A stretch of 58,424 bases of DNA, from the NCBI GenBank assembly GCA_030643485.1, contig DAOWLG010000038.1:1-58424 (forward strand), written 5' to 3'. Both the position numbers and the translations under genes were made by a program. Of this stretch, positions 18,983 to 58,424 are shown piece after piece. Source of the stretch: Candidatus Nealsonbacteria bacterium. Lineage in GTDB: Bacteria; Patescibacteriota; Minisyncoccia; Minisyncoccales; JAGMDC01. The notes below the pieces were generated by a model that searched no databases, had not been told where the DNA came from, and worked only from the letters and a program-made list of their open reading frames with translations. Position 1 is the stretch's first letter, and every line of letters starts with the position of its first letter.

Positions 18983-18984
18983 TT

Positions 18985-23427: not shown

Positions 23428-24780
23428 ATGACAAAAGAAGAATTATGGCAGGCAGTGCTTGCTCAAATTCAATTTAATATCTCCTCGGCAAATTTTGCTA
23501 CCTGGTTCAAAAACACTAAAATCTTAGTCAAAAAAGGGAAACAAATTATTATCTCTGTTCCTAACAATTTTTCTAAAGAATGGCTGGAAAATAAATACAA
23601 TAAAATTATCCTGAAAATTTTACGGGAGATGGACCAAGAGATAAAAGAAATCACATACGAAGTTTCCAAAACAGCGACAAAAACAAAAGAGCAAATTATG
23701 TCGCGCAACGGCTATCAAGATGACGGACAATTAGAATTCCCTGAATTTAAGGTTAATAAAATCACTAACCTTAACCCCCGCTATGCTTTTGAAAATTTCG
23801 TGGTTGGGGCTTACAACGAAGTCCCTCATGCGGCTATTTCCGCGGTTGTGAAAAACCCTGGTAAAATTTATAATCCGCTTTTTATTTATGGCGGAGTAGG
23901 ATTGGGAAAGACCCACTTAATCCAAGCCGCTGGCAATAAAATAGCTGAATCTTTTCCTAAAAAGAAAATCAGATATATTCCATCGGAAAAATTTATCTCC
24001 GGGGTGGTTAATTCTATTAGAAATCATAGTATTAGTAGTTTAAAATCAGACTATAAAAAAATTGATGTTTTAATTATGGACGATGTTCAATTTTTAGCAA
24101 GTAAAGAAAAAACTCAAGAAGAATTTTTCCATATCTTTAACACTTTATATGAAAAAAACAAACAGATAATTATTTCTTCAGACAGACCCCCAAGGGCGAT
24201 TTCTCCAATCGCAGAGCGGTTAAGGTCGCGGTTTGAAGGAGGGATGATAGCTGATATTGGCTTACCTGATATTGAAACAAGGATGGCAATCTTAAAAGTC
24301 AAATCACAGGAAAGAGGGGTGAATCTACCTGAAGAAACATCGGAATATATTGCTACTAATATCCAGAAAAATGTCCGCGAATTAGAAGGAGCAGTAAATC
24401 GTATCGCTGTTTATCAAAAATTAGATAACCAAAATTTTGACACTAACGCGATTAAATCAATACTTAAAAATATAATCACAAACCCTCAAAAACCGGTAAG
24501 TGTTAAAAAAATAATTCAAACCGTGGCAGAGTTTTACGATATAAAAGAAAAAGAAATTTTTGCTATTAGCCGAAGAAAAGAGATTGTAAAGCCCCGACAA
24601 ATTGCTATGTATCTTTTAAGAAATATATTAAGTTGTTCTTTCCCTTATATCGGAAGAAAATTTCAAGGAAAAGACCATACTACCACTATTTATGCTTTTG
24701 GGAAAATTTCTAAAGAACTGGAAAATAATGAGATATTAAATGAAGAAATAAATTTAATAAAACAAAGATTATGTAGTTAA
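23428..24780 (+). CDS. dnaA: Chromosomal replication initiator DnaA
   Basis: GGVGLGKTHL (Walker A), VLIMDDVQF (Walker B). C-terminal DNA-binding domain IAMYLLR...GRKFQGKDHTTTIYA. Confidence 0.97.
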   Translation: MTKEELWQAVLAQIQFNISSANFATWFKNTKILVKKGKQIIISVPNNFSKEWLENKYNKIILKILREMDQEIKEITYEVSKTATKTKEQIMSRNGYQDDGQLEFPEFKVNKITNLNPRYAFENFVVGAYNEVPHAAISAVVKNPGKIYNPLFIYGGVGLGKTHLIQAAGNKIAESFPKKKIRYIPSEKFISGVVNSIRNHSISSLKSDYKKIDVLIMDDVQFLASKEKTQEEFFHIFNTLYEKNKQIIISSDRPPRAISPIAERLRSRFEGGMIADIGLPDIETRMAILKVKSQERGVNLPEETSEYIATNIQKNVRELEGAVNRIAVYQKLDNQNFDTNAIKSILKNIITNPQKPVSVKKIIQTVAEFYDIKEKEIFAISRRKEIVKPRQIAMYLLRNILSCSFPYIGRKFQGKDHTTTIYAFGKISKELENNEILNEEINLIKQRLCS

Positions 24781-24797
24781 TAATAGATAGTAAATTC

Positions 24798-24874
24798 AGT
24801 GGATAATAAGTGGAAAAAATATAAAAATAAAAATCAAAGAAATAATTAGATATTTATCAACAATATTTTCCACA
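24798..24874. promoter_or_regulatory. DnaA-box cluster in the dnaA-dnaN spacer (oriC candidate)
   Basis: Reverse-strand TTATCCACT (24798-24806) and TTTTCCACT (24809-24817). Forward TTATCAACA (24854-24862) and TTTTCCACA (24866-24874). Very AT-rich surroundings. Confidence 0.5.
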
Positions 24875-24931
24875 TCTTATTATATCTTAATTTAATAATA
24901 AGACACAGGAAAAATTGTTTGCTTAATAATA

Positions 24932-26056
24932 ATGAAAATAATAATATTAAAAGATAATATTAAGAAAGGTTTAGAAATCATAGAAAAAATAACAGGAAAA
25001 AATTTAACCCTTCCTGTATTAAATAATGTTTTAATTTCAACAGAGAAAAATCTTTTAAGGTTATCTGGTACTGATTTAGAAATAGGAGTAAAATATTGGA
25101 CGCTATGTAAGACAGAAAAAGAAGGAGAAATAATAATTCCGGCTAAATTTGCGTCTAATTTTATTAATTCGTTACCACAAGAAAAAATATATTTGGAAGT
25201 AAAAAATAAAATTTTACATATTGAATGTAAAAATTATAAAGCAAAAATTAAAACCGAATCTACTCAGGATTTTCCTATAATTCCTAAAATAGAAACAGAG
25301 GATTTTATAAGTGTAAATAATTACCCTTTTTGTCAAGGACTTGAGCAGGTAGTAGAATTTACTACGCCAAATCAGGCAAGGCTGGAACTTTCAGGTGTAT
25401 ATTTTAATTTCCAAAAAAATAAATTAAAATTAGTTGCCACAGATAGTTTTCGCTTGGCTGAAAAAACACTTTATTTTGAAAAAGAATTAGATAAAGAATA
25501 TTCTTTTATTATTCCTCAAAGAACAGTTCAAATGATAATTAATATTTTCTCAGAAAAAGAAGGAAAAATAAGAATTTATCCCTCATCTAATCAGGTTCAA
25601 TTTGAGACATTTTTCCCGGAAATTTCCCATCCCGAAGTTCAGGTTATTTCCCGTTTAATTGAAGGCGAATACCCGAATTATCAGGAAATTATTCCTGAAA
25701 ACTATGAAACCCAAGTTTTATTATCAAAGGATAAATTTTTGAATCAAATTAAAACCGCTTCCCTTTTTAGTGAGAAAAGTAATGAAGTAAAAATAAAAGT
25801 TGTTCCTAAAGAACAAAAAATAGAAATTTTTTCTCAAAGTCCGGAATTAGGCGAAAATTATTCTGATTTAGAAGGAAAAATAACCGGAAAAGAAGTGAGT
25901 GTATCTTTTAATTGGAAATATCTATTAGAAGGGCTTTCTCGCTTGAAAAGTTCTGAAATAATAATTGGGTTAAACGGAGAAGAAGGTCCTGTAGTATTAA
26001 AGCCAAAAGGTGATGATACATATTTCTATATTGTAATGCCAATTAAGGGAAATTAA
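24932..26056 (+). CDS. dnaN: DNA polymerase III beta sliding clamp
   Basis: 374 aa directly after dnaA. Contains LSGTDLEIG, VATDSFRLAEK, a C-terminal MPIK, and three-domain length. Confidence 0.95.
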   Translation: MKIIILKDNIKKGLEIIEKITGKNLTLPVLNNVLISTEKNLLRLSGTDLEIGVKYWTLCKTEKEGEIIIPAKFASNFINSLPQEKIYLEVKNKILHIECKNYKAKIKTESTQDFPIIPKIETEDFISVNNYPFCQGLEQVVEFTTPNQARLELSGVYFNFQKNKLKLVATDSFRLAEKTLYFEKELDKEYSFIIPQRTVQMIINIFSEKEGKIRIYPSSNQVQFETFFPEISHPEVQVISRLIEGEYPNYQEIIPENYETQVLLSKDKFLNQIKTASLFSEKSNEVKIKVVPKEQKIEIFSQSPELGENYSDLEGKITGKEVSVSFNWKYLLEGLSRLKSSEIIIGLNGEEGPVVLKPKGDDTYFYIVMPIKGN

Positions 26057-28208: not shown

Positions 28209-28261
28209 AATTTTTAATTTTTTTACATCTATTCAATTGTTTTCGACCTTTTCCCACACCT

Positions 28262-28342
28262 ATTGTGGATATGCGAATTTGTGAAACAAATTCGCCTTGT
28301 CGCCTTTGGCGACTAATCCACAATAGGTGTGGGATTTCCGTC
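28262..28342. repeat. CCCACACCTA three-way-junction element, copy B
   Basis: P1 CCCACACCTATTGTGGAT/ATCCACAATAGGTGTGGG. P2 GCGAATTTGT-GAA-ACAAATTCGC. P3 GTCGCC-TTT-GGCGAC. Confidence 0.85.
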
Positions 28343-28634: not shown

Positions 28635-28706
28635 CCCCACACCTAATAAGGACAAGGTGCCGAAGGCGATAAGCGCGAATTTAGTATATCCTGAAAAAGT
28701 AGGGGG
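28635..28706. repeat. CCCCACACCTA element, degenerate copy D
   Basis: The 5' arm CCCCACACCTAATAAGGAC is intact. The 3' arm is decayed (TATCCTGAAAAAGTAGGGGG). Confidence 0.6.
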
Positions 28707-28709
28707 AAA

Positions 28710-28801
28710 CCCCACACCTATTCAGGATATGCGAATTTGTTTCACAAATTCGCTGTTCATCAAGCCTTTATGGCTTGATGGAATCCTGAATAGGTGTGGG
28801 G
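28710..28801. repeat. CCCCACACCTA three-way-junction element, copy C
   Basis: P1 CCCCACACCTATTCAGGAT/ATCCTGAATAGGTGTGGGG. P2 GCGAATTTGT-TTC-ACAAATTCGC. P3 is replaced by CATCAAGCC-TTTAT-GGCTTGATG. Confidence 0.85.
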
Positions 28802-29361: not shown

Positions 29362-29433
29362 CCCCACACCTAATAAGGACTGACTTCGTCAATTTTAGAC
29401 GCCTTCGGCGTCTTGTCCTTATTAGGTGTGGGG
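29362..29433. repeat. CCCCACACCTA element, variant copy E
   Basis: P1 CCCCACACCTAATAAGGAC/GTCCTTATTAGGTGTGGGG encloses the hairpin AGACGCC-TTC-GGCGTCT. Confidence 0.85.
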
Positions 29434-29470: not shown

Positions 29471-30319
29471 ATGGATTTATTTTTTTATTTTTTTATATTT
29501 TTATTTGGATTGTGTATTGGCAGTTTTTTGAATTGCGTAATTTATTTGCTTGAAAGTAAAGAGAGACCTGTTCGCGGCCAAACGCGGCGAACAGGCATCC
29601 TGGGACGTTCCTTTTGCCCTAATTGCGGCCATATTTTATCCTGGAAAGATTTAATTCCTGTCTTAAGTTTTTTAATTTTGAAAGCAAAGTGCCGCTATTG
29701 CCAGAAACCTATTTCTTTACAATATCCAATAGTAGAAATAGCAACAGGGTTGCTGTTTCTACTAATTTTCAATTTTCAATTTTCAATTTTCAATCAATTT
29801 TCAATTTTCAATTTTCAAAGCATCATAGCCTTCTTTTTTCTGCTATTGATTACTTGTTTCCTGATAATTATCTTTGTTTATGATTTCAAACATTATATTA
29901 TTCCCGACAAGGTGATTTATCCTGCAATAGTTATCACCTTTTTTTATCATCTAACCAGCCATTGGGATTTGGGACTTGGCTGGCCATTAGTTATTGGGAT
30001 TTGGGACTTCATATCGCCTGCGCTTCTCGCTTCAGGATTTTTTTTGTCTATTGTCCTTATCTCACGCGGAAAATGGATGGGCTTGGGCGATGTAGGGCTT
30101 GCTTTTTTAATGGGTCTTTTACTTGGATTTCCTAATATCTTAGTAGCACTCTTCCTTGCGTTCTCAATTGGTGCTATAATAGGAACAGGGCTGATAATTA
30201 AACACAAGAAGACCCTGAAAAGCGAAGTGCCGTTTGGGCCATTTTTAGTAATCGGCACGTTTATTGCAATGTTCTGGGGAGAAAAAATTGTAAATTGGTA
30301 TCTAAATTTTGCCATATAA
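29471..30319 (+). CDS. pilD: Prepilin peptidase (A24 family, PilD-like)
   Basis: CPNCGH...CRYCQ cysteine pairs, LQYPIVEIATGLLF, multiple TM segments, WMGLGDVGL and VPFGPFLV catalytic-Asp contexts. Confidence 0.9.
   Translation: MDLFFYFFIFLFGLCIGSFLNCVIYLLESKERPVRGQTRRTGILGRSFCPNCGHILSWKDLIPVLSFLILKAKCRYCQKPISLQYPIVEIATGLLFLLIFNFQFSIFNQFSIFNFQSIIAFFFLLLITCFLIIIFVYDFKHYIIPDKVIYPAIVITFFYHLTSHWDLGLGWPLVIGIWDFISPALLASGFFLSIVLISRGKWMGLGDVGLAFLMGLLLGFPNILVALFLAFSIGAIIGTGLIIKHKKTLKSEVPFGPFLVIGTFIAMFWGEKIVNWYLNFAI
29567..29595. repeat. Palindrome inside the pilD coding sequence
   Basis: CCTGTTCGC (29567-29575) ... GCGAACAGG (29587-29595), encoding RPVRGQTRRTG. The arm sequence is related to the GACCCGTTCTCG palindrome in and after tatD. 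Confidence 0.75.
29765..29818. repeat. ATTTTCAA octamer tandem tract inside the pilD coding sequence
   Basis: 54 nt of (ATTTTCAA)n, in frame, encoding IFNFQFSIFNQFSIFNFQ. Same sequence family as the intergenic GAAAATTGAAAAT elements. Confidence 0.85.
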
Positions 30320-34600: not shown

Positions 34601-34780
34601 GCCCCGTCCTTTGTCATTGCGAGGACCGCCACCATTGTCATTGCGAGAAGCGAACGAAGTGAGCGACGAAGCAATCTCTATTCCCTATTTAGATTGCTTC
34701 GGCTTCGCCTCGCAATGACAGGAGGGGGACGCTCGCAATGACAGATGGGACGCTCGCGATGTAGATGTCCGACATCTACA
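34601..34780. repeat. GTCATTGCGAG / GCTCGCAATGAC repeat cluster plus GTAGATGTC-C-GACATCTAC palindrome
   Basis: Multiple copies of GTCATTGCGAG..GCGACGAAGCAATCT and its complement. Palindrome at 34760-34780. Confidence 0.85.
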
Positions 34781-34788: not shown

Positions 34789-36339
34789 TCAGAATGGTGT
34801 GGGAATAATAATTATTGATTCAACTCTTTTTGGATCAAAGCCAGGAAACGCCCAACTACTATATATGCTGTCGTTTTTTATACTATGGTAGCAGTTATCT
34901 GGTCCTTCGGGTTTTAAGAAAAGTTGGCAGTCATTGCCCTTAAAATGTTGCCCTGTGTTAAGCACAACTGCATAACTTCCATTGATATCAAAAGATAAAA
35001 TATTTCTATGTAATGATGAATCTATTTTTGGTCCAGGGGATTCTCCAGTGGGTTCAACCCTAAGGCAACAATCACTAGTGTAAGAGGGAGAATAATTGCA
35101 CAAAGAACAACAAGGGAAATTAGGAGGACAATCACAAGGAGTATTAGGACAACCTTTATTTGTTCCAAGATTTTTTAAAATCATTGCACCTTGATGACCC
35201 GTGAGGTCAATTTTTTTTCCATTTCCTGAACAATTAAGTCCGTCCCAGAAAACAACATCATCATAGGTTTCGCCCCAGATATTTATAAGAGCCAAAGAAG
35301 AGAGCGTATTATTTCCTATTCCATTTTCAGGAATATAATAGCCGCACCAGTCTGGCCATTCTGTGCTACATATATCTCTGGATAAATCTGGTATACTTAA
35401 ATGGAAAGCATAACCGCATTTACCTCTATGTTTATCATTAGTGAATAAAACAGCGCCGTATGTATTTTCCGGATTAAATTTTAAGGAATCTGCCCTGTTC
35501 TCCCATTTTCCGAGTTTTTCAACGCTTCCAGAAAGGTATTTTGGTGGCGTGGCGCAGAGATATTCGCTGGTGTCAGGGTTATCTAAGTCGCTTTCGCAAT
35601 AATCTGTTCCCTCATAGAGATAGACGCCCTGCTTATTTCTAAGAAAATAAATTGATTTTGGCGCAAAATCCTTATCCTCGTCAAAACTAATACTACCGTC
35701 CTTATTTTTAATTCTTTCTATCTCCGTGAAAAAATCGGCTTTGTAATTTTCATTTTTGAAAATAAAAACCGAAGTTAATTCATCAGGAGAACTGATAAAA
35801 AACATAGAGTTTGCTTGAAATTTATCAGTATCAATACTACCAGCATCTGTGACGAAATGTTGTTTTTGTTCTCCTTGTTTTTCCCCGACACAAGGAAGTT
35901 CACAAATATCTTGTTCACATAAACAAATTCCGGCAACCGGATCCAGAGGCTCCATTTTTTGGATAAACGCTAAATCAGGATTGATAGTGGTTAAAATTAG
36001 ATAAGAACCGAGCAAAAGCACTAATCCCATTATCCCGCCGAGCATCCATGACCTTGCGTCGCTGATTGCCGCTGGATTACCAACAGAAGCCATCCAGCGA
36101 ATTCCCCCAAAAAGCAAAACGGCAAAAGCCAAAATTCCTCCAATCATCACGGAAAAATTAAAAATGTATTTTATGTACCCTGGCAGTTCAGTCCCTTCAG
36201 CCGGCGCTTCCGCTCCCGGCGCGTTCGGATAATCAATTTCCAATCCCCTTTCCGCAAAAGTAAAACCGCTGCACGCGCAAATCGTGAAAACAGCAAAAAG
36301 AGATATTAAAATAATTTTCTGGTTAGATTTGTAATTCAT
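34789..36339 (-). CDS. Paralogous surface protein with the same pilin module and a larger Cys-rich extracellular domain
   Basis: The first roughly 120 aa are nearly identical to ORF 33275-34591. The C-terminal domain shares the YLYEGTDYC...LGKWENRADSLKF..YGAVLF motifs and adds a CPNTPCDCPPNFPCCSLC block. Confidence 0.7.
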   Translation of the reverse strand: MNYKSNQKIILISLFAVFTICACSGFTFAERGLEIDYPNAPGAEAPAEGTELPGYIKYIFNFSVMIGGILAFAVLLFGGIRWMASVGNPAAISDARSWMLGGIMGLVLLLGSYLILTTINPDLAFIQKMEPLDPVAGICLCEQDICELPCVGEKQGEQKQHFVTDAGSIDTDKFQANSMFFISSPDELTSVFIFKNENYKADFFTEIERIKNKDGSISFDEDKDFAPKSIYFLRNKQGVYLYEGTDYCESDLDNPDTSEYLCATPPKYLSGSVEKLGKWENRADSLKFNPENTYGAVLFTNDKHRGKCGYAFHLSIPDLSRDICSTEWPDWCGYYIPENGIGNNTLSSLALINIWGETYDDVVFWDGLNCSGNGKKIDLTGHQGAMILKNLGTNKGCPNTPCDCPPNFPCCSLCNYSPSYTSDCCLRVEPTGESPGPKIDSSLHRNILSFDINGSYAVVLNTGQHFKGNDCQLFLKPEGPDNCYHSIKNDSIYSSWAFPGFDPKRVESIIIIPTPF

Positions 36340-36342
36340 ATT

Positions 36343-37608
36343 TCATTTCAATAATAATTTCCATAAAGGAAGGTATTTAATATTTTTACCTTTGAATTTT
36401 TCTATTTTTTCATTGTCCCAAGTAATAATTTCTAAGGTCTTACAGTTTAATTCTTTACTCGCCTCAATCAATGCCATTAATTCCCGTTTTTCTACTTCCG
36501 GATTATCTATTTGATAACATACCTGAATTAATTTCTCAATTTTTAATCCTTTCCTTAATATAAAGTCAACTTCTTTTCCGTTTCTCGTTTTATAATAAAA
36601 AACATCTTTATTGGATGTGTATCCCTTTCTTAAAATTTCAACAAAAACCAAATTTTCCATTAGTTTGCCAAGATTTTGAGAAAACTGAAACGCTTTTGCC
36701 AAAATAAAACCATTATCAATAAGGTAAACCTTTTTTGGCGTTCTAATCTGTTCTTTTGTCTTGAAAGAAAACCTATTCAAAAGAAAAATCAAATATGCCT
36801 CTTCAAGATATTTTAAGTAATTTTGAACAGTATTTGTGCTTCTGAAATCCAAAGCATTTTTTAATTTTGTAAAACTGAATTCAGATGAAAAATTAGAAAT
36901 CAAATAAATAGAAAGGTCATAAATTTTTTGCGAAAATCTAATTCTATATCTTTTGACTACATCTTTAAATAAAATTGCGTCAAAAAGGGTAGCTAAATAA
37001 TCTTTGGCTTCTAATTTTTTAACCACAACTTCCGGAAAACCGCCTTTTTTGAGATATTCATCCAAATAATTCAAAATTTTGCCTTTTATTTCCGGCAGTC
37101 CGGTATATTCTTTTTTTATTTTGAAACCTTTTGCTATTAAAAATTCCTTAAAACTAAAAGGAAAAATTTCTATTGGAATATATCTTCCGGTTAAAGCGGT
37201 TCCCAATTCTTTACTCAAAAGATTGGCATTAGAGCCAGTCAAAATTAAATTATACCCTCTTCTTTGAAGTTTATTGACAAAGAGTTCCCAATTTTCTAAA
37301 TTTTGAATTTCGTCAAATAAAATAAACTTGGCATCAGGATAAACTTCAAAAATTACTTCTAAAATCTCATCGTAATTTTTCTTTTTCACTAAGTTTTCAT
37401 CATCAAAATTCAAATAAGCAAATTCCTTATCTCTTAAAAGTAAAAAAGAAAACACGGATTTTCCTACTCTTCTTGAACCTGTAATAACTTTTATTAAATC
37501 AGTATCTAAATTTCTTTTAGCAAAATCAAGTTTTTCTCGTAATACATATGTCTTTGAAACAAACTTTTCTTTTTCTAATTTATGTTGTAAAACAATGTTT
37601 TTTATCAT
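36343..37608 (-). CDS. AAA+ ATPase of the COG1373 / DUF4143 type
   Basis: Walker A GSRRVGKS and Walker B ILFDEIQ. Same architecture as ORF 45896-47206. The maximal ORF start (37704) lies inside a palindrome, so the start is set to MIKNIV. Confidence 0.8.
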   Translation of the reverse strand: MIKNIVLQHKLEKEKFVSKTYVLREKLDFAKRNLDTDLIKVITGSRRVGKSVFSFLLLRDKEFAYLNFDDENLVKKKNYDEILEVIFEVYPDAKFILFDEIQNLENWELFVNKLQRRGYNLILTGSNANLLSKELGTALTGRYIPIEIFPFSFKEFLIAKGFKIKKEYTGLPEIKGKILNYLDEYLKKGGFPEVVVKKLEAKDYLATLFDAILFKDVVKRYRIRFSQKIYDLSIYLISNFSSEFSFTKLKNALDFRSTNTVQNYLKYLEEAYLIFLLNRFSFKTKEQIRTPKKVYLIDNGFILAKAFQFSQNLGKLMENLVFVEILRKGYTSNKDVFYYKTRNGKEVDFILRKGLKIEKLIQVCYQIDNPEVEKRELMALIEASKELNCKTLEIITWDNEKIEKFKGKNIKYLPLWKLLLK

Positions 37609-37687
37609 ATTTCTGCTTGCTACTGAACAAAAATTCCATTTTTTGTTCACTACATCTATCTTACTGCACAAAATCGCTAATGTCAAT

Positions 37688-37710
37688 GTGTAGATGTCGG
37701 ACATCTACAC
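37688..37710. repeat. GTGTAGATGTC-G-GACATCTACAC palindrome
   Basis: 11-bp arms. Related copies at 34760-34780 and 42414-42434, and a variant at 56681-56703. Confidence 0.85.
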
Positions 37711-37716
37711 ATTCAT

Positions 37717-38745
37717 TTATTCTCCCTCGCAGCAAAACCAATTATCCATATAAAATTCTCTTGCGTCTAAGCAATCATTGCTATTTGGACCTTGTTTGCA
37801 TTTTGGTAAAACATTATTTCTTATAGCATCTTTGAGCGGGGACACGGAATCATCGGGAAGATAATAAGGATAACAATGGGGATAATCAGTTATTTGGTCC
37901 TCAAAAAAGCCCAAAATAACCAGGTCGCCTAATACTATTTTATCTAAGGCAATCCTACAACTTAATGTTCTCATTTTTACCTTGCCTTCCTGTATAGGAA
38001 ACCCATAACCAGTAAGGCATTGCTCTAATTTTGAGCGCGAATTAAGAAGTTTATTTGTAATTTTCCATCTGTTTGGGTCATTTGGTAATAAATTTTTTAC
38101 TTCAATCAATTTTATAAATTTTTTACAAGGACATATCATAGTGTTGTAATTTGTTTCCACATTTGTATAATTATTTGTAATATTTATGGAATGAGTTGTA
38201 ATCTGAGCGAAAATAGAATTAATTTTTGAAATTTCTCTACAAGGGTGATTAACGCTATTGCAATCGCCACAACTAAGAGAGTAGTTTATATCGCAATTTT
38301 CTCCATTTTCATCGCAGTCGCAGTCACCAGAAGGATTACAACTACAAGAACAAGAGCAGGGCACTGCTGGACAATTATCTACGCAGCCATGATTATTGTC
38401 TTTGCTGGTGAAAAAGAGCAAACACCATGCTTCATCTATTTCTGCTTCTGCTTCATCTCTCATTGATAGAGTTTTATCTTTTATTGTGATTCCTTTATTA
38501 TAAATTTTATCAAGTTCAATGATTAGTTTTTCAGCAAATAATTCTGTTTCGTCAGTTGTCTCGCCAATCGGAATTTTGCCTTTTTCAATTTTTTCTTGAG
38601 TAAATTTATTTTCCTTAAACGGGTCCACCACGCATTTTTCTTTTTGTCCCCAAGCAAAAATTTCCCTGTTTGTATTATAGAACAAGGTTGCGGATAAAGA
38701 AAGTAAAATTATCAGGAAAAACCAAATTATTTTATTACCATTCAT
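37717..38745 (-). CDS. Secreted Cys-rich protein (hypothetical)
   Basis: N-terminal signal/TM IIWFFLIILLSLSATLF. Cluster CVDNCPAVPCSCSCSCNPSGDCDCDENGENCD...CGDCNS, similar to a block in ORF 38771-41869. Confidence 0.6.
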   Translation of the reverse strand: MNGNKIIWFFLIILLSLSATLFYNTNREIFAWGQKEKCVVDPFKENKFTQEKIEKGKIPIGETTDETELFAEKLIIELDKIYNKGITIKDKTLSMRDEAEAEIDEAWCLLFFTSKDNNHGCVDNCPAVPCSCSCSCNPSGDCDCDENGENCDINYSLSCGDCNSVNHPCREISKINSIFAQITTHSINITNNYTNVETNYNTMICPCKKFIKLIEVKNLLPNDPNRWKITNKLLNSRSKLEQCLTGYGFPIQEGKVKMRTLSCRIALDKIVLGDLVILGFFEDQITDYPHCYPYYLPDDSVSPLKDAIRNNVLPKCKQGPNSNDCLDAREFYMDNWFCCEGE

Positions 38746-38770
38746 ATTTTTTATTCAACAAGATAATGAA

Positions 38771-41700
38771 TTATTGGCTTCCACAACAACATTTCAAGGA
38801 CTTAGTGCAGCAACAGTGAATTTTAGGAGAAATTTTTCCGACTACATTCCATTGATCGTTACAATTATTATTATCTGTCCATTCTAATATGTACGCATAG
38901 TCTATTCCTGTCACAGGATCATTGTACGCGCATCGCATTGATATTTGTTCGATACTTTCGCAATAGTTGTTGCAGCTTGTTTCAGGCAGACTGCACCAAT
39001 AAGCAGGATTATTTATGCAATTTGACCAGGTTGCAGGCTGTTGCGTTCGGCATTGTGGATGATTTAATACGCATCGGACTTCATCCTCACAACCAGGAGG
39101 GCAGCAGCAATCACGGGTTTGGTTCATTTCATCGGGAGCGCAATTTCCTTCACCGCAGTCATCATCTCTCCACGGAGTACATTCGCAATCACAAGGCGCG
39201 CCTTCTTTGCAGTACGCGCTATTTTCACAGCATTCAGCGCAATCTGTGGCTTCCGGAAGTTTATATTCGTCGGGACAGACTTTTTCATCGTCAAGACAAC
39301 AATACCCTGATAGATCTTCTACACAAAGTTGTTGTTCAGAAGGTATAAGTTTTCCAGAGAGATAAAAACTGGCTGGTTCGCCGTCAAGATTGTAGATATC
39401 GCATAATTGTCCTGGCTGCCCCTGTCCGATTCCTTTATTTAATTCATATTCAATACATATTTCAGGATTTATTTGGTCAAACGTTTTACAATTAAATTCT
39501 CTGCAATATCTTGATATATTAAAACTATAAAATTCATTTTTATCTATTTTTTTGAATAATTTTTTATTCATATATTCAGCCAAGATGAGCGGTTCTTCGT
39601 AAACATATTTGATTAAACTTTCTGCCTCGTTTAGATAACTTAAATCTGTTTTCAATTCGTTGTTTAATGTGTTTAATCTGTTCAGCGCTTCGTTATACGG
39701 TAAAAAAGTTGGAGTAACAAGCGGATCCATTAAGGGATCGTAAAAATACAAATGTCCTTGATCAAATAAATCATAATTTGCGCCATAAATAAACGACCAA
39801 ATTTCATCTCTTTTTTCGTTTAATTCTTTCATAATATCTGGTATAATGATATTTCTTAATTCCTCCATCTCGCTTCTAAGAGGACAGGGATCGTCAGAAC
39901 AATTACAATTGCAGCTTGAATTTCCACAACCGCTACAACCTGAGCAATTTTTATCACAATGGTCGCAGTCGCATTGATTAGCGTAATTTGTCAAATCTTG
40001 AGATTTGCTTTCTATATCTACAGCTAAAATTTTTAATTCTTTAGATAGATTCTTTAATTTTTCGCTTTTTATTTTAATTGCGGTTAAGAGTTTTTTTATA
40101 CAATCCAATCTATCGTGATTTTTCATTTTATCTACTATGTCTGGAGTGCTCAAATCTATATCAATCATATCGCCACTTGGATTTGCGTCTTTAATGTCAT
40201 AATGATAACAATCAATGTTTTTAGCCAAAACATTTTCAATCAAAAGGCCGACAGGGATTTCTTGGTAATATGTTATTTCTGTTTCCGGAGGTGTATGTTC
40301 CGGTGGTTCAGAAGGTTCAAATAAAGTTAGGTCTGGCAGTTTTAAGATAGCCAGTTCAGGATTTATAGTGGTAAAGATTAAATAAGAACAGAATAAGAGA
40401 ATCAATCCCATAATTCCCGCTTTCATCCAGGACATAGCGTTGCTTATTACTTCCGGAGAACCAACAGAAGCGAGCCAGCGGATTCCTCCAAATAGCAAAA
40501 CAGCAAAAGCCATAATCACGCCAAGTATTAAGGCAAAGTTAAAAATGTATTTTATATACCCGGGCAGTTTAGTTTCTATGCCTGGTGTTTTCGCTCCCGG
40601 CACATCCGGATAATCAATTTCCAAACCCGGAATAAAACCGTCACCATCGTCACTATCACCGCAGACAGAATCAGGTACGCATTTAATAGTCCCCTCTGGA
40701 TACCCGCTGCTACATTCTCCTGAACATCCTTCTGGCTCGCATATTTCAGTTCGTTCTTTAGCGGAGTCACACACATATTGATCACTACAACCATAGTTTT
40801 TCCATTTACAAGGGGTTGGCTGTGTCGGAGCTTCACCCTCGCAAATAGAATGAGATGGCATCAGAGGGTAGTTGTCTCGGCTGTCAGGATCTATGACATA
40901 AGGAGTATCGCCTATGTCATCTCCGTCTGCGTCCACTCCTGTGTAATCGCTCCAGCAGTTTCCCTCGGCGGAGTTGTCCCAATAGTGTTCATTGGCATAA
41001 TGCTCCGATGTTATTCCATCCGATGCTTGATAAGTGTTATCTGCTATAATGTTATGGTAGATCTTAAAAAGCCCAGAATTATGCAGGAAAATCCCATTTT
41101 CATTTTCCTTTATAGTATTACGAATTATTTCATTTTCATATGAATGGAAGTCGGATTTGAGTCCATAAAAGCTATTTGATATAACATTATTGATTATTTC
41201 ATTACCTCCACTACTATGCATCAAATGGATACCGCTACCAGGGTTCGAGTCTAGAGTGTTATTAAGTATTTGATTGTAATTTGCGGTCAGTATGTGAATA
41301 CCCTCACTATTTGAATTCAAAATATTATTTTCTATCCGATTGTGATGGCAACTGCTTATGAGGATACCATAACCACATGACTTCACAATATTGTTGGTCA
41401 CCTCGTTAGAATTAGACTGAGATATTATCTTGATGCCCGCTTCGAGACCCGTCACGATGCTTAACTCTACGATGTTATCTTCTATCACATTATTAATAGC
41501 TTGTACTAAATAAATTCCATCACCCCCGTCGTTCTTCACCGTGAATCCACTGATGGTCACTCCTGTTAATGGAGTAAATGACTCACCAACTAAGGAGATA
41601 CACTTACCACTCCCGCCGCCGTCAATAATCGTTGTTTCACTATTCTCCCCTTTAAGCGTCAGAGACTTCGAGATTTCCACATTCTCGTTATAAGTCCCCG

Positions 41701-54178: not shown

Positions 54179-55723
54179 ATGAAAAAATTTTATATTACTA
54201 CAACTCTGCCCTATGTCAATGCTATTCCGCATATTGGTTTTGCATTAGAAATTATTCAGGCAGATGTGATAGCTCGTTATCGCCGTGAAAAAGGCGATGA
54301 TGTATTTTTTAATACTGGCACTGACGAACACGGCTTAAAAATTTATCGCCAAGCCCTGAAAGAAAAAAAAGACCCGCAAAAGTATTGTAATGAATATGCG
54401 GCTAAATTTGATAATTTGAAAAAGGCATTAAATTTAAGTTATGATAATTTTATTCGCACAACTGATAAAAATCATATCAAAGCAGCGCAGGAATTTTGGC
54501 AAAGGTGCGAGGCAAATAAAGACATCTATAAAAAAAAATATAAAATAAAGTATTGCGTAGGTTGTGAATTAGAAAAAACAGAATCAGAATTACAAAACGG
54601 GAAATGTCCTTTGCATCCGAATTTAGATTTAGAAATCATTGAAGAAGAAAATTATTTTTTTCGTTATTCAAAATATCAAGACAAACTTCTGAAACTGTAT
54701 GAAAAAAATCCAGATTTTGTTTTACCAATTTCCCGACTGAATGAAATTAAAAAATTTACTAAACGCGGCTTAAAAGATTTTAGTATTTCTCGATTATCAG
54801 AAAAAATGCCTTGGGGCGTGCCAGTGCCGAACGATGAAAATCATGTAATGTATTGTTGGTTTGACGCTTTAATCAATTACATTTCTTGTCTTGGCTGGCC
54901 AAAAAATTTAGAAAAATTTGAGCAATATTGGCCGGGAATTCAATCGGCTGGCAAAGATAATTTGCGCCAGCAATCATCAATGTGGCAGGCAATGCTAATG
55001 TCAGCTGGATTGCCAAATTCAAAACAGATTTTAATTCACGGCTTTATTACTTCTAATGGTAAAAAAATGTCAAAGTCATTAGGAAATGTAGTGAACCCGT
55101 TTGAACTGGTTGAAAAATACGGCGCTGACGCAGTTCGTTATTTTCTTTTGCGGGAAATTCCTCCATTTGAAGACGGCGACTACACGCAAGAAAAATTTGA
55201 GCAACGATACAATTCTGATTTGGCAAAAGGGCTTGGAAACCTCACCGCAAGAGTGATAACTCTTGCTAAAATCATCAATAATCAATCATCAGTTATTAGT
55301 AATCAATTATCAGTAATCAATAAAGTTCCAGATTCCAATTTTCAAAAAGAGATAAAGAAAACTTGGAAAAATTATGAAAAATCTTTGGGCAAATTCAAAT
55401 TCAACGAATCGTTAGAGGAAATCTGGAAACTAATCAGTTTTTGCGACCGGTATATTGAAAAAGAACGGCCATGGGAAAAAGCGACAGCGGTGAAAAATAA
55501 TCAATCATTAGTTATCAGTGATTTATTATTAACATTGGCAAGCATAGCTGAAATGTTAAGACCGTTTATGCCGAAAACATCGGAAAAAATTTTCCAACAA
55601 TTAGGGATAAAACCATTAAAAATTTCACCCTTAACCCCACCCTTAACTTCACCCTTAACTCTATCCTTTCAATCTTTGAAATTTAAGGTCAAGAAAAGCA
55701 AACCGCTTTTCCCCAGAATTTAA
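54179..55723 (+). CDS. metG: Methionyl-tRNA synthetase
   Basis: [17 protein letters not shown] (HIGH region), KMSKSLGN, C-terminal PLFPRI. Confidence 0.95.
55271..55345. repeat. Fragment of the AT-rich palindromic element embedded in frame in metG
   Basis: AATCAATTATCA and ATTCCAATTTTCAAA are shared with the left arm of the element at 19581-19711. Encodes [25 protein letters not shown] second short relative lies at 55494-55525. Confidence 0.7.
55626..55659. repeat. 12-nt tandem repeat x3 (CACCCTTAAC core) in the metG 3' region
   Basis: Cores at 55626, 55638 and 55650, encoding [12 protein letters not shown]. Confidence 0.8.
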
Positions 55724-55785: not shown

Positions 55786-56607
55786 ATGTTATTTGACACT
55801 CACGCGCATCTTAATTTTGCCGCTTTTAGTAAAAACAGAGACAAAATCATAAAAAATTGCCAGAAAAATAATGTCTGGTTAATAAATGTTGGCATAAATT
55901 ATGAGACATCAAGAAAAGCAGTAGAGATTGCGGAAGAAAGTTCTCAAGGCATATACGCCGCAATCGGACTTCACCCACAAGAAATTTTAGAAGAAAGGTT
56001 TGACTTTGAAAAATATAAGAACCTTGCCATAAGTTCTAAAAAAGTTAAGGCAATCGGCGAGATTGGCTTGGATTATTGGCACAAACCAAAAACCAAAAGC
56101 AAATTAGCCGAGTTTAAGCAGAAACAAAAAGAATTGCTTTTGCAAGAAATCAAATTAGCCCATGAATTAAATCTGCCCATAATCTTCCACTGCCGAATGG
56201 CGCACGACGACCTTATTGAGCTTTTGACGAGACCCGTTCTCGTCCGCGCGCGGACGAGAACGGGTCTCGTCCCGCTCACCCTTAATGGCGTTATCCATTG
56301 TTTCACCGGAACCTGGCAGCAAGCGCAGAAATTTTTGGCTCTGGGATTTTATTTAGGATTTAATGGAATTATTTTCAAAAAAATTAAGGGAATTTCATTT
56401 AATGAAGTCATTAAAAAAACTCCATTGTCTCGGATTTTAATAGAAACCGACTGCCCGTTCCTTACCCCGCCGCAAGAAGGCGATAAAAGAAACGAGCCAA
56501 TTTTTGTAAAACACATTGTTCAAAAAATTGCTGAAATCAAAAATATCTCTTTTGAAAAAATAGCAAAAGTCACGACTCAAAACGCCAAAAAACTATTCCA
56601 CATCTAA
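55786..56607 (+). CDS. tatD: TatD-family metal-dependent hydrolase/DNase
   Basis: FDTHAHL, GEIGLDY, IFHCRMAH, IHCFTG, ETDCPFL. Confidence 0.9.
   Translation: MLFDTHAHLNFAAFSKNRDKIIKNCQKNNVWLINVGINYETSRKAVEIAEESSQGIYAAIGLHPQEILEERFDFEKYKNLAISSKKVKAIGEIGLDYWHKPKTKSKLAEFKQKQKELLLQEIKLAHELNLPIIFHCRMAHDDLIELLTRPVLVRARTRTGLVPLTLNGVIHCFTGTWQQAQKFLALGFYLGFNGIIFKKIKGISFNEVIKKTPLSRILIETDCPFLTPPQEGDKRNEPIFVKHIVQKIAEIKNISFEKIAKVTTQNAKKLFHI
56226..56271. repeat. Perfect 21-bp-arm palindrome inside the tatD coding sequence
   Basis: GACGAGACCCGTTCTCGTCCG-CGCG-CGGACGAGAACGGGTCTCGTC encodes TRPVLVRARTRTGLV. It lies between the HCR and HCFTG motifs. Confidence 0.9.
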
Positions 56608-56680
56608 ATATTCATATTAAAACAAGACATTCTCGAGCAACGGTCGTTGCTTTAGAATGTTACCTTTTAATTTCTTGCGA

Positions 56681-56703
56681 ATGGCGATGTCGGACATCGC
56701 CAT
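56681..56703. repeat. ATGGCGATGTC-G-GACATCGCCAT palindrome
   Basis: 11-bp arms. The core GATGTCGGACATC is shared with the GTAGATGTC family. Confidence 0.85.
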
Positions 56704-56717
56704 TTATTATTATTCAA

Positions 56718-56753
56718 GACCCGTTCTCGTCCGAGCACGGACGAGAACGGGTC
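56718..56753. repeat. Intergenic twin of the tatD palindrome
   Basis: GACCCGTTCTCGTCCG-AGCA-CGGACGAGAACGGGTC, followed by TCGTCC as in the coding copy. Confidence 0.9.
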
Positions 56754-56763
56754 TCGTCCGGCT

Positions 56764-57594
56764 TTATTTCAACGCGATGCCGTGACGGACGGCGCCTTCG
56801 GCATAGTGCTTTTGGATTTCCGCGGTGCTCAACGCTGTGTCATAAATCCTGACCTCGTCGATTGTGCCGTTGAAGTAATATGCGCCCAATCTTCCTATAT
56901 TAGTATCTAAGCCTGTACTACCCATTCCATCAAAAGCTGAATTTGTATTCGTTCCTACTAATTCACCATTCACATAACCTTTTGCTGTCCAATCACCCGT
57001 ATATTTTCTATAAACCCCAACAATATGTATCCAGTTGTTATTCCATTCGCTTTGCCATGCGTAAACAAGTGATGCAATATCTGTTCCATCATTAGCATAA
57101 AACAAAAGATTTCCATCCTGAGCAGGAGCATAGATTAACCAGCCAAAATTTCTACTGGCTATTGGATTTCTCTTCGCTTGGTCAGTAGTTTTCACCCACG
57201 CCTCAATCGTAATCGCATCAGTGATATTCAAACTCGGTGAATCGGGAATTTCAACATAATCATTATCACCATCAAATACTAACGTATTTCCATAAATTCC
57301 ATCAGTAGTCCAGCCAGAACTAGGAATAGGAGGGGCGCTAAAATTCTTTAATTCTCCATCATTCCCAAATCCGGATTCATCAAAAGCCGTAATTCCTGAA
57401 CCTTTTTCAAATCTCCATATCCCAACTGCTTCAGAACCCAATGCGTGCTGAACACTGGAACTAAATTGTTTAGCTTTTGCCATTCTTGCTTTTTCTCCAT
57501 ATCCTTTCATTGAAACCAAAACAATACTGGATATTAATCCAATGATGGAGATAACTACAAGAAGCTCAATAAGGGTGAATGATTTATTTTTCAT
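56764..57594 (-). CDS. Type IV pilin-like protein with a LamG/ConA-like lectin domain
   Basis: MKNKS|FTLIELLVVISIIGLI (Ser, not Gly, at -1). LVFDGDNDYVEIPDSPSL...WIHIVGVY...FNGTIDEVRIY. Start set to ATG 57594. Confidence 0.8.
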   Translation of the reverse strand: MKNKSFTLIELLVVISIIGLISSIVLVSMKGYGEKARMAKAKQFSSSVQHALGSEAVGIWRFEKGSGITAFDESGFGNDGELKNFSAPPIPSSGWTTDGIYGNTLVFDGDNDYVEIPDSPSLNITDAITIEAWVKTTDQAKRNPIASRNFGWLIYAPAQDGNLLFYANDGTDIASLVYAWQSEWNNNWIHIVGVYRKYTGDWTAKGYVNGELVGTNTNSAFDGMGSTGLDTNIGRLGAYYFNGTIDEVRIYDTALSTAEIQKHYAEGAVRHGIALK

Positions 57595-57656
57595 TATTCT
57601 ATTATACACCTATTGCGAAAAAACACAAAAATATTCTCATTCCTAATTCACAATTC

Positions 57657-57690
57657 CCTATTGTCTTATTCGTGCGAATAAGACAATAGG
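57657..57690. repeat. Perfect 16-2-16 palindrome upstream of the ArsR-like gene
   Basis: CCTATTGTCTTATTCG-TG-CGAATAAGACAATAGG. Confidence 0.9.
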
Positions 57691-57714
57691 AAAGATAGGT
57701 GTTTTATTATTTTT

Positions 57715-57742
57715 TTGAACAATTTCTAAAATGTGCTATAAT
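57715..57742 (+). promoter_or_regulatory. Promoter of the ArsR-like gene (extended -10)
   Basis: TTGAAC (57715-57720), 16-nt spacer, TGC-TATAAT (-10 at 57737-57742). A 29-nt block is identical to 28591-28619. Confidence 0.45.
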
Positions 57743-57764
57743 GAAAATGTTGTTGAGCGCAAAA

Positions 57765-58070
57765 ATGAAAATTATTATGACCACATCTTTATCATCTTTT
57801 AATTCAAGAGAGTTAGCTATGATTTACAAATCATTAGGAAATATCCGTCGAATTTTAATATTGATATATCTTTTAAAGCAGAAAGAATTAACAGTTGGTC
57901 AAATTAGTGAACTTTTAAAGCTTTCTTTCAAAAGTGTTTCTAAACATCTTTTAATTTTAGAAAATGCTGAAATAATTAAGAAAAGACAAATTGGTTTGAA
58001 TATGCTTTATTCAATTAATAAAAATTTTCCAAGATCTATTTTGTTCTTTTTGAAAAAATTGTCATATTGA
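57765..58070 (+). CDS. ArsR/SmtB-family winged-HTH regulator (start uncertain: 57747, 57765 or 57777)
   Basis: YKSLGNIRRILILIYLLKQKELTVGQISELLKLSFKSVSKHLLILENAEIIKKRQIG. Confidence 0.7.
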   Translation: MKIIMTTSLSSFNSRELAMIYKSLGNIRRILILIYLLKQKELTVGQISELLKLSFKSVSKHLLILENAEIIKKRQIGLNMLYSINKNFPRSILFFLKKLSY

Positions 58071-58102
58071 AAAAATTATCATAAAAAAATTTCAAAGAAT
58101 TT

Positions 58103-58136
58103 CCTATTGTCTTATTCGCACGAATAAGACAATAGG
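58103..58136. repeat. Inverted copy of the 16-2-16 palindrome downstream of the ArsR-like gene
   Basis: CCTATTGTCTTATTCG-CA-CGAATAAGACAATAGG. The loop is CA rather than TG, so this is the exact reverse complement of 57657-57690. Confidence 0.9.
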
Positions 58137-58223
58137 AAATGTGAATGTCTGGAATCTACATTTTTGCACGATCCCTCCCCTGTGTGCAGGGGCGAGGTTT
58201 TCGGTCGTTTCGCTCCCTCAAAG

Positions 58224-58260: not shown

Positions 58261-58319
58261 AGAAAAATCGTATTATAGTTTTTTTAAGGCGCAAATAAGA
58301 GGAGATAAAAAACGGAAAA

Positions 58320-58424
58320 ATGGGCGAAGAAGCGAAAAGTAAAAAATTGCGTACAGCCAATGATTTGATAAATGAAGCAGTGGAAGAACAAAAAGAGAGA
58401 GAAAAAATTGATTTGAATACTTAC
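58320..58424 (+). CDS. 5' end of an unidentified gene (runs off the window)
   Basis: ATG 58320 preceded by AAGAGGAG about 15 nt upstream. Product MGEEAKSKKLRTANDLINEAVEEQKEREKIDLNTY... Confidence 0.35.
   Translation, partial: MGEEAKSKKLRTANDLINEAVEEQKEREKIDLNTY

Follow-up and report, generated by a model that had tools for sequence, protein, structure and literature searches.

The stretch of DNA analysed here, of 58,424 nt and referred to below as the window, raises the question of how one and the same palindrome comes to lie both inside a protein-coding gene and in the non-coding region that follows it. The gene is an intact tatD (55786-56607, + strand), whose ORF of 273 aa gave a full-length match in a Pfam scan (TatD_DNase, E=8.8e-76, profile positions 1-253 of 253), with the residues H6, H8, E92, H135, H171 and D222, which we take to be the metal ligands, invariant in the alignment with its relatives. 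A 36-nt core, GACCCGTTCTCGTCCG-N4-CGGACGAGAACGGGTC, is matched exactly within this gene at 56231-56266 and again downstream at 56718-56753, which bears out the double occurrence reported in an earlier note on this DNA. The window has no further match at up to three mismatches, and none of 100 dinucleotide shuffles yielded a match either. The 3′ extension TCGTCC is also common to the tatD and intergenic copies.

The coding copy (56226-56272) contains a perfect palindrome of 46 nt (56226-56271), formed by two 23-nt arms with no spacer, which upon folding gave -44.1 kcal/mol as RNA (z=-8.5) and -28.2 kcal/mol as DNA (z=-8.6). Fifteen codons of the tatD frame (56227-56271, + strand) correspond to the peptide TRPVLVRARTRTGLV, residues 148-162 of TatD, whose translation we infer from the intact reading frames. 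The GC content of the insert loop is about 0.6, with a 40-nt peak of 0.75, as compared to 0.38 for the tatD gene and 0.345 for the window. As had been noticed before, the palindrome gives the same peptide on either strand: an antisense ORF (56073-56306, - strand), which lies wholly inside tatD, has it in its translation (...SGTRPVLVRARTRTGLVKSS...), and is probably a product of the palindromic symmetry and not a gene. The sequence TCACCCTTAA, which stands 3′ of the tatD copy and recurs at the 3′ end of metG, was rejected as a further candidate, its frequency not being above chance.

The intergenic copy (56717-56754), detected through pattern match and folding, consists of a 17-bp stem, whose arms occupy 56717-56733 and 56738-56754, around the 4-nt loop AGCA, and its folding energy as RNA is -34.1 kcal/mol for the + strand and -38.2 kcal/mol for the - strand. 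A + strand ORF over this copy encodes the same peptide as the tatD insert; a HMMER search with this 42-aa ORF against 1.84 billion representative proteins returned no match, as expected for a match of 14 aa. Comparison of the copies defined a 3′ tag, CGTCCG (56755-56760, + strand), which follows the stem and remains unpaired in the intergenic copy. An alternative mini-hairpin, CGGACGAGA-ACGGG-TCTCGTCCG, folds independently as DNA and is directly followed by the T-rich GCTTTATTTC (56738-56770, + strand), an arrangement that a terminator scan found to be terminator-like; such a tail follows the mini-hairpin of the intergenic copy only, and the coding copies have no T-run. The position of this second site was also correctly described in the earlier note: it is bordered by tatD on one side and on the other by a convergent type IV pilin-like gene (56764-57609, - strand; Pfam N_methyl and Laminin_G_3), the stop codon of which is 4 nt from the tag of the repeat, and stands beside two strong hairpins (56626-56661 and 56679-56705). 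Both hairpins are unrelated to the repeat and are located between it and the tatD stop codon (56616-56705), the first spanning 56616-56671 around the inner stem just mentioned and the second being itself flagged as terminator-like. The whole tatD/pilin intergenic region folds with -71.5 kcal/mol (z=-9.7), and its three terminator-like sites are no excess over the 2.7 expected from shuffles. In this convergent 3′ region crowded with hairpins, any role of the intergenic copy would probably go no further than a contribution to a terminator or to the stability of the mRNA 3′ end.

A third copy was found about 3.6 kb beyond the end of the window, on a near-identical public contig (ENA L019). It is identical to the tatD copy at 47 of 47 positions, loop included, and lies inside the unrelated gene of a 2089-aa surface protein with an LTD domain, where a different frame is used and the repeat is read as DETRSRPRADENGSRP. 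Some 66 kb of a single genome hold three copies, two of them in unrelated genes and in two frames and one intergenic, all within about 4.05 kb and with roughly 62 kb around that have none (p of about 0.01 in a post-hoc estimate assuming uniform placement over the ~66 kb). This clustering in about 4 kb fits local gene conversion or segmental copying as well as it fits transposition. Over 12.5 kb only 2 SNPs separate L019 from the window, but from position 58305 onwards the two sequences diverge completely, which suggests that L019 was assembled separately. Since both copies of the window are present in it unchanged, the pair is not a duplication introduced by assembly, a possibility named in the earlier note. 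No transposase, including those of the Y1/RAYT type, was found among the ORFs of the 58-kb window scanned with Pfam, nor is any transposase listed in the precomputed Pfam annotation of the 8 kb that L019 adds.

Conservation of the gene order around tatD indicates that its TatD relatives are orthologues, and none of the 119 closest ones has the insert peptide. BLASTP identity is 66% for the best of them (identities over aligned columns reach 70%), and many have a length of just 254-259 aa. With the loop counted as starting directly after HCRxA and ending on the Gly, or its equivalent, that precedes (V/A)(I/V)HC(F/Y), its length is 29 aa here. Among the 119 relatives, 87 allowed both motifs to be placed, and their loops range over 14-38 aa, with modes of 18 and 21. 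These figures replace the 20 aa here and the 6-10 aa in known TatDs that had been claimed before. Without the 15 insert residues the loop comes to 14 aa, the shortest length among the relatives, and the solved TatD structures 1j6o and 2gzx/6l25 are 10-11 residues shorter, with the alignment gap exactly at the insert. An AlphaFold model of TatD (mean pLDDT 93.8, pTM 0.91) places the insert between the helix 140-148 and the strand 168-171, in what would be the alpha5-beta6 surface loop, across the TIM barrel from the metal site and thus on its non-catalytic face. A low-confidence beta-hairpin (154-157/160-163) is predicted within the insert, and the pLDDT is 58 for the block of residues 151-160, 58-82 for the alpha5-beta6 loop and at least 88 for the remainder. 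Alignment and structure mapping, two of the checks proposed in the earlier note, agree with its reading, and the segment was not found conserved in relatives that lack the palindrome. Three other lineages (L038, L039 and L041) have unrelated GC-rich and partly hairpin-forming inserts in the same TatD loop, and another (L043) has such an insert in a different loop; the palindrome itself, at up to four mismatches per arm, is absent from the ~50 kb flanking the tatD orthologues of the relatives L037-L040. As no empty-site allele of tatD was found, and the closest comparison is with orthologues at most 66% identical (BLASTP), the insertion, with putative boundaries that make it 45 or 48 nt long, is inferred from the comparison of orthologues.

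Outside this organism, a diverged relative of the repeat occurs twice in one Kerfeldbacteria genome (GC 0.52), in two copies about 2 kb apart, one of them intergenic and the other in the gene of a class I SAM methyltransferase, where it is read in the third frame (peptide RDPFSS...). Both share their architecture and the 3′ TCTCGTCCG with the repeat of the window, from whose stem theirs differ by one compensatory change of C:G to T:A and one G:T wobble. The insert segment of the methyltransferase is missing from its homologues and splits the Pfam domain, and no empty-site allele was found for this gene, the closest homologues being 57-58% identical (BLASTP; 63-64% over aligned columns). The presence of the same architecture in a distant genome of the Patescibacteria indicates a family that is older and wider than one locus. 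As a separate observation, three different elements are stacked in one loop of this methyltransferase.

An exact 21-mer of the repeat had no match in 185,579 species genomes, and a relaxed pattern gave 17 matches in genomes, with the flanking bases in common only for the one in Patescibacteria (Kerfeldbacteria); the other 16 were dismissed as chance palindromes of high-GC genomes with unrelated flanks. A pattern for the inner stem matched 18 times in JGI metagenome contigs, in every case high-GC unrelated hairpins without the outer stem, the relaxed pattern had no match in viral contigs, and the comparison with Rfam families gave only sub-threshold matches to generic hairpins (microRNA precursors). 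At the protein level, a word-index census with the three frame peptides joined yielded no candidate and missed even TatD itself.

Taken by their architecture, all five copies, three in this organism and two in Kerfeldbacteria, have TCT-CGTCC after the stem. The CGTC motif is unpaired in the intergenic copy of the window and paired with GACG in the two coding copies of the same organism, and in the two Kerfeldbacteria copies CGTCCG is only partially paired, across a bulge. The element measures 45 or 48 nt, is a hairpin throughout and is free of stop codons in all frames, so that a copy within a gene leaves the reading frame open. The flanks of the three copies of this organism share nothing, neither a direct repeat nor a target duplication being common to them, and an AG duplication like that of the yeast GC42 element was considered and discarded as inconsistent across copies.

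These data make it likely that the palindrome is a REP/RPE-like repeat, short and dispersed, native to a Parcubacteria-type lineage of the ultra-small Patescibacteria and translated where it falls into tolerant surface loops. The central claim of the earlier note, that an intergenic repeat had entered a coding region in frame, is upheld by the absence of the peptide in the 119 relatives, the local GC spike, the third copy and the Kerfeldbacteria relative. The unit would be a mini stem-loop with a 9-bp stem, CGGACGAGA/TCTCGTCCG, and a 5-nt loop ACGGG, and two such units, inverted and a few bases apart, would form a single hairpin of 17-21 bp ending in the 3′ tag CGTCC(G). Copies would be pasted into new sites, and those landing inside a gene would add 15-16 residues, the phase selecting among TRPVLVRARTRTGLV, DETRSRPRADENGSRP and RDPFSS..., and would persist only where the protein tolerates them, which in TatD would be the loop from alpha5 to beta6 and in the other two host proteins either a linker lying beyond the recognised domains or a variable segment between motifs. 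Regarding the machinery, there is apparently neither a target-site duplication nor a terminal inverted repeat beyond the hairpin, and for this reason a mobilisation in trans can be tentatively put forward, through a single-stranded hairpin intermediate and an HUH/Y1-type enzyme encoded elsewhere, a route that is our best guess and still less likely than not.

Some other explanations have to be weighed against such a repeat. The hairpin could be kept for a function instead of being selfish or neutral, either as an RNase III or other processing site, as a pause or attenuator of tatD, or as the binding site of a DNA- or RNA-binding protein. A role of this kind would agree with the very stable and perfect stems of 17-21 bp, with the compensatory change that keeps the pairing between organisms, with the resemblance of the intergenic mini-hairpin and its T-rich tail to a terminator and with the clustering of three copies in 4 kb. 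However, the nuclease, the giant surface protein and the methyltransferase that serve as hosts have no relation to one another, frames and positions vary, the coding copies have no T-run 3′ of the stem, and terminator-like sites do not exceed their frequency in shuffles; together with the lack of Rfam matches above noise and with orthologous TatD loops that elsewhere have entirely different inserts or none, this makes a conserved function improbable. The repeat might also be a regional accident with no mobile element behind it, copied locally from a nearby source hairpin by gene conversion, template switching or snap-back synthesis. Little probability is given to such copying, in spite of the three copies of this organism lying within ~4.05 kb of ~66 kb (p ~0.01, post hoc), the ~2 kb between the Kerfeldbacteria pair, the absence of a transposase nearby and the lack of a visible target duplication, because the same architecture is present in a second and distant Patescibacteria genome with a GC content of 0.52, and the flanks of the copies share nothing, which means that no larger segment was carried along.

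Whether the tatD palindrome is translated at all could likewise be doubted. The 'byp' elements of a yeast mitochondrion, reportedly described by Lang et al. in 2014, are said to be GC-rich hairpins that are bypassed or excised, and the palindrome could similarly be removed from the mRNA or skipped by the ribosome. It is indeed a GC-rich hairpin in an AT-rich genome, similar in size to those elements and with a strong stem in the mRNA (-44 kcal/mol), but all three coding copies, two here and one in Kerfeldbacteria, lie in an open frame, with no stop and with a number of nucleotides divisible by three, which bypassing would not need, and AlphaFold fits the segment as a surface hairpin that leaves the fold undisturbed, making this alternative very improbable. 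Finally, the segment would hardly be an ancestral TatD loop, as its peptide is missing in 119 relatives, or an artefact of assembly, as the copies recur base for base in an apparently separate assembly and the ORFs are all intact; this last explanation is the most unlikely of all, next to negligible.

With a dispersed repeat as the preferred reading, the locus has a wider interest. Good documentation of palindromic repeats that colonise genes in frame comes for the most part from Rickettsia and a few REP-rich bacteria. The same phenomenon can now be extended to the Candidate Phyla Radiation (Patescibacteria), for which no description of it was found in the searchable literature. The example is an unusually clean one, with an identical stretch of 47 nt in two frames and two genes of one genome and a relative in the third frame elsewhere, and suggests where part of the lineage-specific inserts in the proteins of this group may come from. 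The TatD alpha5-beta6 loop appears to have been independently struck in at least four or five lineages. We see an even chance that, in Patescibacteria, short repeats from several unrelated families use the surface loops of ordinary housekeeping proteins as landing pads. Those observed here are the hairpin that ends in CGTC, the GTCATTGCGAGG...GAAGCAATC palindromes, which are widespread, further GC-rich hairpins, and tandem repeats of heptanucleotides, three units of which (3 x 7 nt) make 7 codons. If so, the insertion of repeats would be a major source of lineage-specific inserts in these proteins. There is also a warning for annotation, as GC-rich "extra loops" and odd antisense ORFs in AT-rich genomes may derive from repeats. 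The finding also offers a small and testable system for how much structured selfish DNA an essential-type enzyme fold and its mRNA can bear.

Among the known systems, MITEs such as Correia and ERIC (PMC10969869) are similarly non-autonomous and hairpin-forming, and are sometimes intragenic with in-frame fusions, but they exceed 50 bp and have terminal inverted repeats around an internal segment as well as target-site duplications, none of which is seen here. The GTAG REPs and REPINs, linked to RAYTs, differ in their GTAG, absent at both ends of this repeat, and no Y1_Tnp is included in the domain lists of the window and L019. Some mitochondrial GC clusters lie in frame in coding sequence (var1), and double-hairpin elements that Paquin et al. 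reportedly described in 2000 can be counted among the comparable systems. The GC clusters of yeast and other fungal mitochondria (GC42, PMC4478555), which serve as an analogy only, are also GC-rich palindromes of ~40-50 nt in a very AT-rich genome, with conserved hairpins, variable loops and no known transposition enzyme, but they are organellar and mostly intergenic, and GC42 comes with an AG target duplication that is absent here.

Closer parallels are found in bacteria, where in-frame insertions of REPs and RPEs, and REP dimers folding as one large hairpin, are documented (PMC3733652, PMC10969869). As in the Rickettsia RPEs (PMC10969869), a palindromic repeat is present both between genes and in frame within housekeeping genes that are unrelated to one another, the peptide added by it falls where the fold can accommodate it (here by predicted structure), and the host genome is small, AT-rich and reduced. 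There are several copies per genome, three in ~66 kb here and two more in the Kerfeldbacteria locus, and the ORF is kept in TatD, in the 2089-aa LTD-domain protein and in the class I methyltransferase. Classic RPE families, on the other hand, are about 100-150 bp long and encode, in one frame, 30-50 aa of conserved peptide (PMC10969869, after Ogata et al. 2000), whereas the element here has 45-48 nt and 15-16 aa and uses all three frames; moreover, the host phylum is Patescibacteria instead of Alphaproteobacteria, in a comparison made by description and not by sequence. The likeness to Rickettsia RPEs drawn in the earlier note is apt as an analogy, and does not extend to membership, given a length of 45-48 nt and not 100-150 nt.

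Among the tagged REPs (Di Nocera et al. 2013, PMC3733652), which include RPE-4 and RPE-6 of R. conorii, those with a CGTC tag, alone or as inverted dimers, are described as abundant, mainly extragenic and located 3′ of genes. Here, the copies are few and one of three is extragenic, between convergent genes, in a comparison made by description. Other differences are the base pairing of CGTC in the coding copies (GACG...CGTC), the absence of A/T pairs at the first two positions of the stem, which here begins AGA/TCT, or CGG/CCG in the mini-hairpin, and a tail of CG(G) in place of CCA. Both systems, however, are built from a mini stem-loop, its stem being of 9 bp and its loop of 5 nt here, and of 8-9 bp and 4-5 nt in those REPs, and have inverted units a few bases apart that fold singly or as one large hairpin. 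Also common to both are intragenic copies that encode short peptides, a CGTC motif at one end of the stem, which in all five copies studied here stands directly 3′ of the 17-bp stem, and the fact that no dedicated transposase has been found. Of the classes described so far, the short tagged REPs (PMC3733652), which count the short families RPE-4 and RPE-6 among them, come closest.

The 36-nt core named in the earlier note was matched exactly at 56231-56266 and at 56718-56753, with no further match in the window when up to 3 mismatches were allowed and with a match in none of 100 dinucleotide-preserving shuffles. The copy in tatD is a perfect 46-nt palindrome (56226-56271) with arms of 23 nt and no spacer, and the intergenic one (56717-56760) has arms of 17 nt and a 4-nt loop; both continue on the 3′ side as TCGTCC, as first noticed. 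The intergenic copy lies, in agreement with the same note, between the tatD stop codon, from which it is separated by two strong hairpins unrelated to the element, and a convergent type IV pilin-like gene (N_methyl and Laminin_G_3 domains). In a window of 34.5% mean GC, the copies reach 40-nt peaks of 0.75 (tatD) and 0.68 (intergenic), among its sharpest GC spikes. Their predicted RNA folds have energies of -44.1 kcal/mol (z = -8.5) and -34.1 kcal/mol (z = -6.8), respectively, and the DNA fold of the tatD copy one of -28.2 kcal/mol.

The host ORF of the first copy (55786-56607, 273 aa) encodes a full-length TatD_DNase (Pfam, E = 8.8e-76), whose best matches are named by their sources as Parcubacteria, Nealsonbacteria or Patescibacteria group, which places the organism in the Candidate Phyla Radiation. 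The palindrome encodes TRPVLVRARTRTGLV (residues 148-162), and the predicted recurrence of this peptide was found in the antisense ORF 56073-56306 and in a + strand ORF over the intergenic copy. An AlphaFold model built with a 47-sequence alignment (mean pLDDT 93.8, pTM 0.91) shows a single weak stretch, residues 151-160 (pLDDT 58) and 161-170 (82), in which the insert projects as a beta-hairpin made of strands 154-157 and 160-163, preceded by helix 140-148 and followed by strand 168-171. Loops that run from a helix to a strand in a (beta/alpha)8 barrel lie on the side away from the catalytic face, where the strands have their N-terminal ends. The presumed metal ligands H6, H8, E92, H135, H171 and D222 do not vary in the TatD alignment, and therefore the enzyme is very probably functional and the insert a tolerated surface excrescence.

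As judged from the sequences of its relatives, this loop appears to be a hot spot: where the flanking motifs could be placed (87 of 119 relatives), the length of the segment varies between 14 and 38 aa. Among seven relatives compared at the DNA level, L038, L039 and L041 show GC spikes of 0.57-0.59 at the same loop in genes of ~0.35 GC, the L038 insert being a member of a GTCATTGCGAGG...GCAATC palindrome family, and L043 has a GC-rich insert with hairpin potential in another loop. In the closest orthologue (L037), the loop holds three tandem AAGTTAT heptamers, which give EVISYKLQ. According to the TatD family alignment, inserts confined to particular lineages are also present in a minimum of three further loops (after GLHP, in DYWxKPK and before RNEP), and one more lies in the C-terminal helix; PAAFASASTKVSADKKASANQ and SLPPSPMLRRTSPQELRRT are examples.

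A third copy was found in a near-identical ENA contig, L019, which reaches ~8 kb past the window end. This copy (L019 14446-14493) is 47/47 identical to that of tatD, CGCG loop included, and maps to a gene of 2089 aa whose product has LTD, fn3 and Big domains. There it is read as DETRSRPRADENGSRP in a frame different from that of tatD, in an N-terminal region and outside any Pfam domain. A relaxed two-arm pattern scanned on genomes, one per species, gave 17 matches, 16 of which were discarded as unrelated hairpins of high-GC genomes. The sole match in Patescibacteria, which shares the flanking bases too, belongs to a Candidatus Kerfeldbacteria MAG (L025), whose first copy, AGAT-CCGTTCTCGTC-tact-GACGAGAACGG-ATCTCGTCCG, shows one compensatory pair (C:G to T:A) relative to the window's element. 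A second copy with one G:T wobble, ~2 kb from the first, falls in the gene of a class I SAM methyltransferase, where it is read in the third frame as GRDPFSSLDKNGSAG and is stacked next to two further segments derived from palindromes. The Pfam methyltransferase domains are split at this site, and homologues of the enzyme lack the segment. Because tatD, the 2089-aa gene and the methyltransferase each read another frame, translation of the family in all three frames is seen, at the level of predicted genes, across three unrelated proteins.

Each arm of the element can fold by itself into a mini-hairpin, CGGACGAGA-ACGGG-TCTCGTCCG, whose stem is 9 bp and whose loop is 5 nt. Two such units in inverted orientation make up the whole element, which can be folded as either two small hairpins or a long one. 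On the 3′ side of the 17-bp stem, all five copies end in ...TCT-CGTCC, an end that is unpaired in the window's intergenic copy, paired with a 5′ GACG in the tatD and L019 coding copies, and only partly paired (as CGTCCG, across a bulge) in the two Kerfeldbacteria copies. No direct repeat was detected in the flanks of any copy. The tatD and L019 copies have no stop codon in three frames (by hand translation, two frames also computationally), a feature given no weight, as by a rough estimate 1 in 3 such sequences would show it by chance at this GC.

Duplication during assembly, raised in the earlier note as a possible source of the copies, is ruled out by L019 (ERZ23498719 scaffold_40, from an ENA metagenome), which carries both window copies unchanged. 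This contig differs from the window by 2 SNPs over 12.5 kb and is wholly unrelated to it over the final stretch, 58305-58424 (L019 from 12520 onward), so that it seems to have been assembled separately, from a near-identical strain; the break at 58305 may reflect an assembly join or a structural change that separates the strains. The other alternative put forward there, that the segment is conserved in distant relatives without the palindrome, was rejected, as was an ancestral origin of the loop segment, since the peptide is missing from all 119 closest TatD relatives. The best of them reaches 66% identity by BLASTP (aligned columns alone give up to 70%), many are only 254-259 aa long, and the conserved order ProS - peptidase - AI-2E transporter - MetG - TatD indicates that they are orthologues. 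Without the 15 insert residues the loop would be 14 aa long, as short as the shortest among relatives, and the solved structures 1j6o and 2gzx/6l25, when aligned, show a gap of 10-11 residues precisely at the insert. The sequence observation is thus confirmed, and the reading of the element as an intergenic palindromic repeat that also occurs in genes, in frame, is supported.

Another GC-rich palindrome family, GTCATTGCGAGG...GAAGCAATC, is more abundant, with 14 matches in the window at up to 2 mismatches where 2 are expected. Three clusters located between the large ORFs (41920-42405, 34613-34742 and 48838-48903) account for twelve of the matches, and two are isolated, with 2 mismatches each (6215-6226 and 20228-20239). 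One cluster brackets a small stand-alone GIY-YIG nuclease ORF (42011-42343, - strand) and supplies its 3′ end, and the family also occurs in frame in the L038 TatD and the Kerfeldbacteria methyltransferase. An AT-rich palindrome, TTCCCTATTGTCTTATTCG-NN-CGAATAAGACAATAGGAAA, stands on both sides (57654-57693 and 58099-58140) of an ArsR/HTH_5 regulator gene (57699-58070), and could be either an operator pair or another repeat family. Other palindromes are AAAATTGCCAGAGGAC/GTCCTCTGGCAATTTT (12106-12144, 18945-18991) and CCCCACACCTA...TAGGTGTGGGG (28252-28334, 28678-28738, 29362-29433), the latter around pilin and prepilin-peptidase genes. Short tandem repeats also appear translated in frame in the L037 TatD loop and in the window's metG (54179-55723), whose product contains a 12-residue stretch of this kind and has a C-terminal tail built of TCACCCTTAA-type repeats (3′ end, 55625-55658); one TCACCCTTAA 3′ of the tatD palindrome (56276-56285) is not significant.

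Elsewhere in the window, one ORF (22393-23082, - strand) starts as ribosomal protein L34 and continues without a stop as a type IV pilin-like protein (Pfam L34 residues 3-43, N_methyl 44-66), so that L34 stands where a prepilin would have its leader peptide; a gene for a prepilin peptidase is also present (29471-30319). The presence of dnaA-dnaN (23428-26056) indicates that a replication origin is probably nearby, and heptamer-repeat inverted structures map to 23153-23260. The window also contains a SAM riboswitch (1418-1530), two N6/N4 DNA methylases adjoining helicase/ResIII genes (4194-5498, 12724-14568) and a type IV secretion-like cluster with TraG-like ATPase, PrgI and T4SS_pilin domains (34789-45842).

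Identical copies occur at unrelated sites, all coding copies keep the reading frame open, a second genome has a related element, and the TatD insert is predicted to lie at the surface. These findings are consistent with an element that would spread by copy-and-paste, its copies surviving only at permissive, frame-preserving sites. No transposase domain was found in the Pfam-scanned window ORFs or in the extra 8 kb of L019. Three copies fall within ~4 kb of 66 kb (p ~0.01, a post-hoc estimate), a clustering that could result from local hopping or local gene conversion. The intergenic copy may act as a terminator or mRNA stabiliser; its mini-hairpin is followed by GCTTTATTTC, such sites being no more frequent than in shuffles.

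No matching family was found in Rfam, nor any report of such elements in Patescibacteria in the literature searched. Their importance would rise if a landing-pad pattern, in which surface loops take up short repeats of several unrelated families, were general in the Candidate Phyla Radiation. The proposed parallel with the palindromic elements of Rickettsia (RPEs), which are in-frame selfish palindromes (PMC10969869), holds for the phenomenon, in-frame palindromes in genes, but not for size. In architecture, it most resembles the tagged REPs described by Di Nocera et al., a class without a dedicated transposase that includes R. conorii RPE-4 and RPE-6 and shows 8-9 bp stems, 4-5 nt loops, a terminal CGTC, inverted dimers that fold as one hairpin and some intragenic copies (PMC3733652). 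Unlike tagged REPs, though, it has neither an A/T stem start nor a CCA tail, and its CGTC tag is paired in the coding copies, so the element is called REP-like and not a REP member. A good analogy from AT-rich genomes is offered by GC42 (PMC4478555) and other GC clusters of mitochondria.
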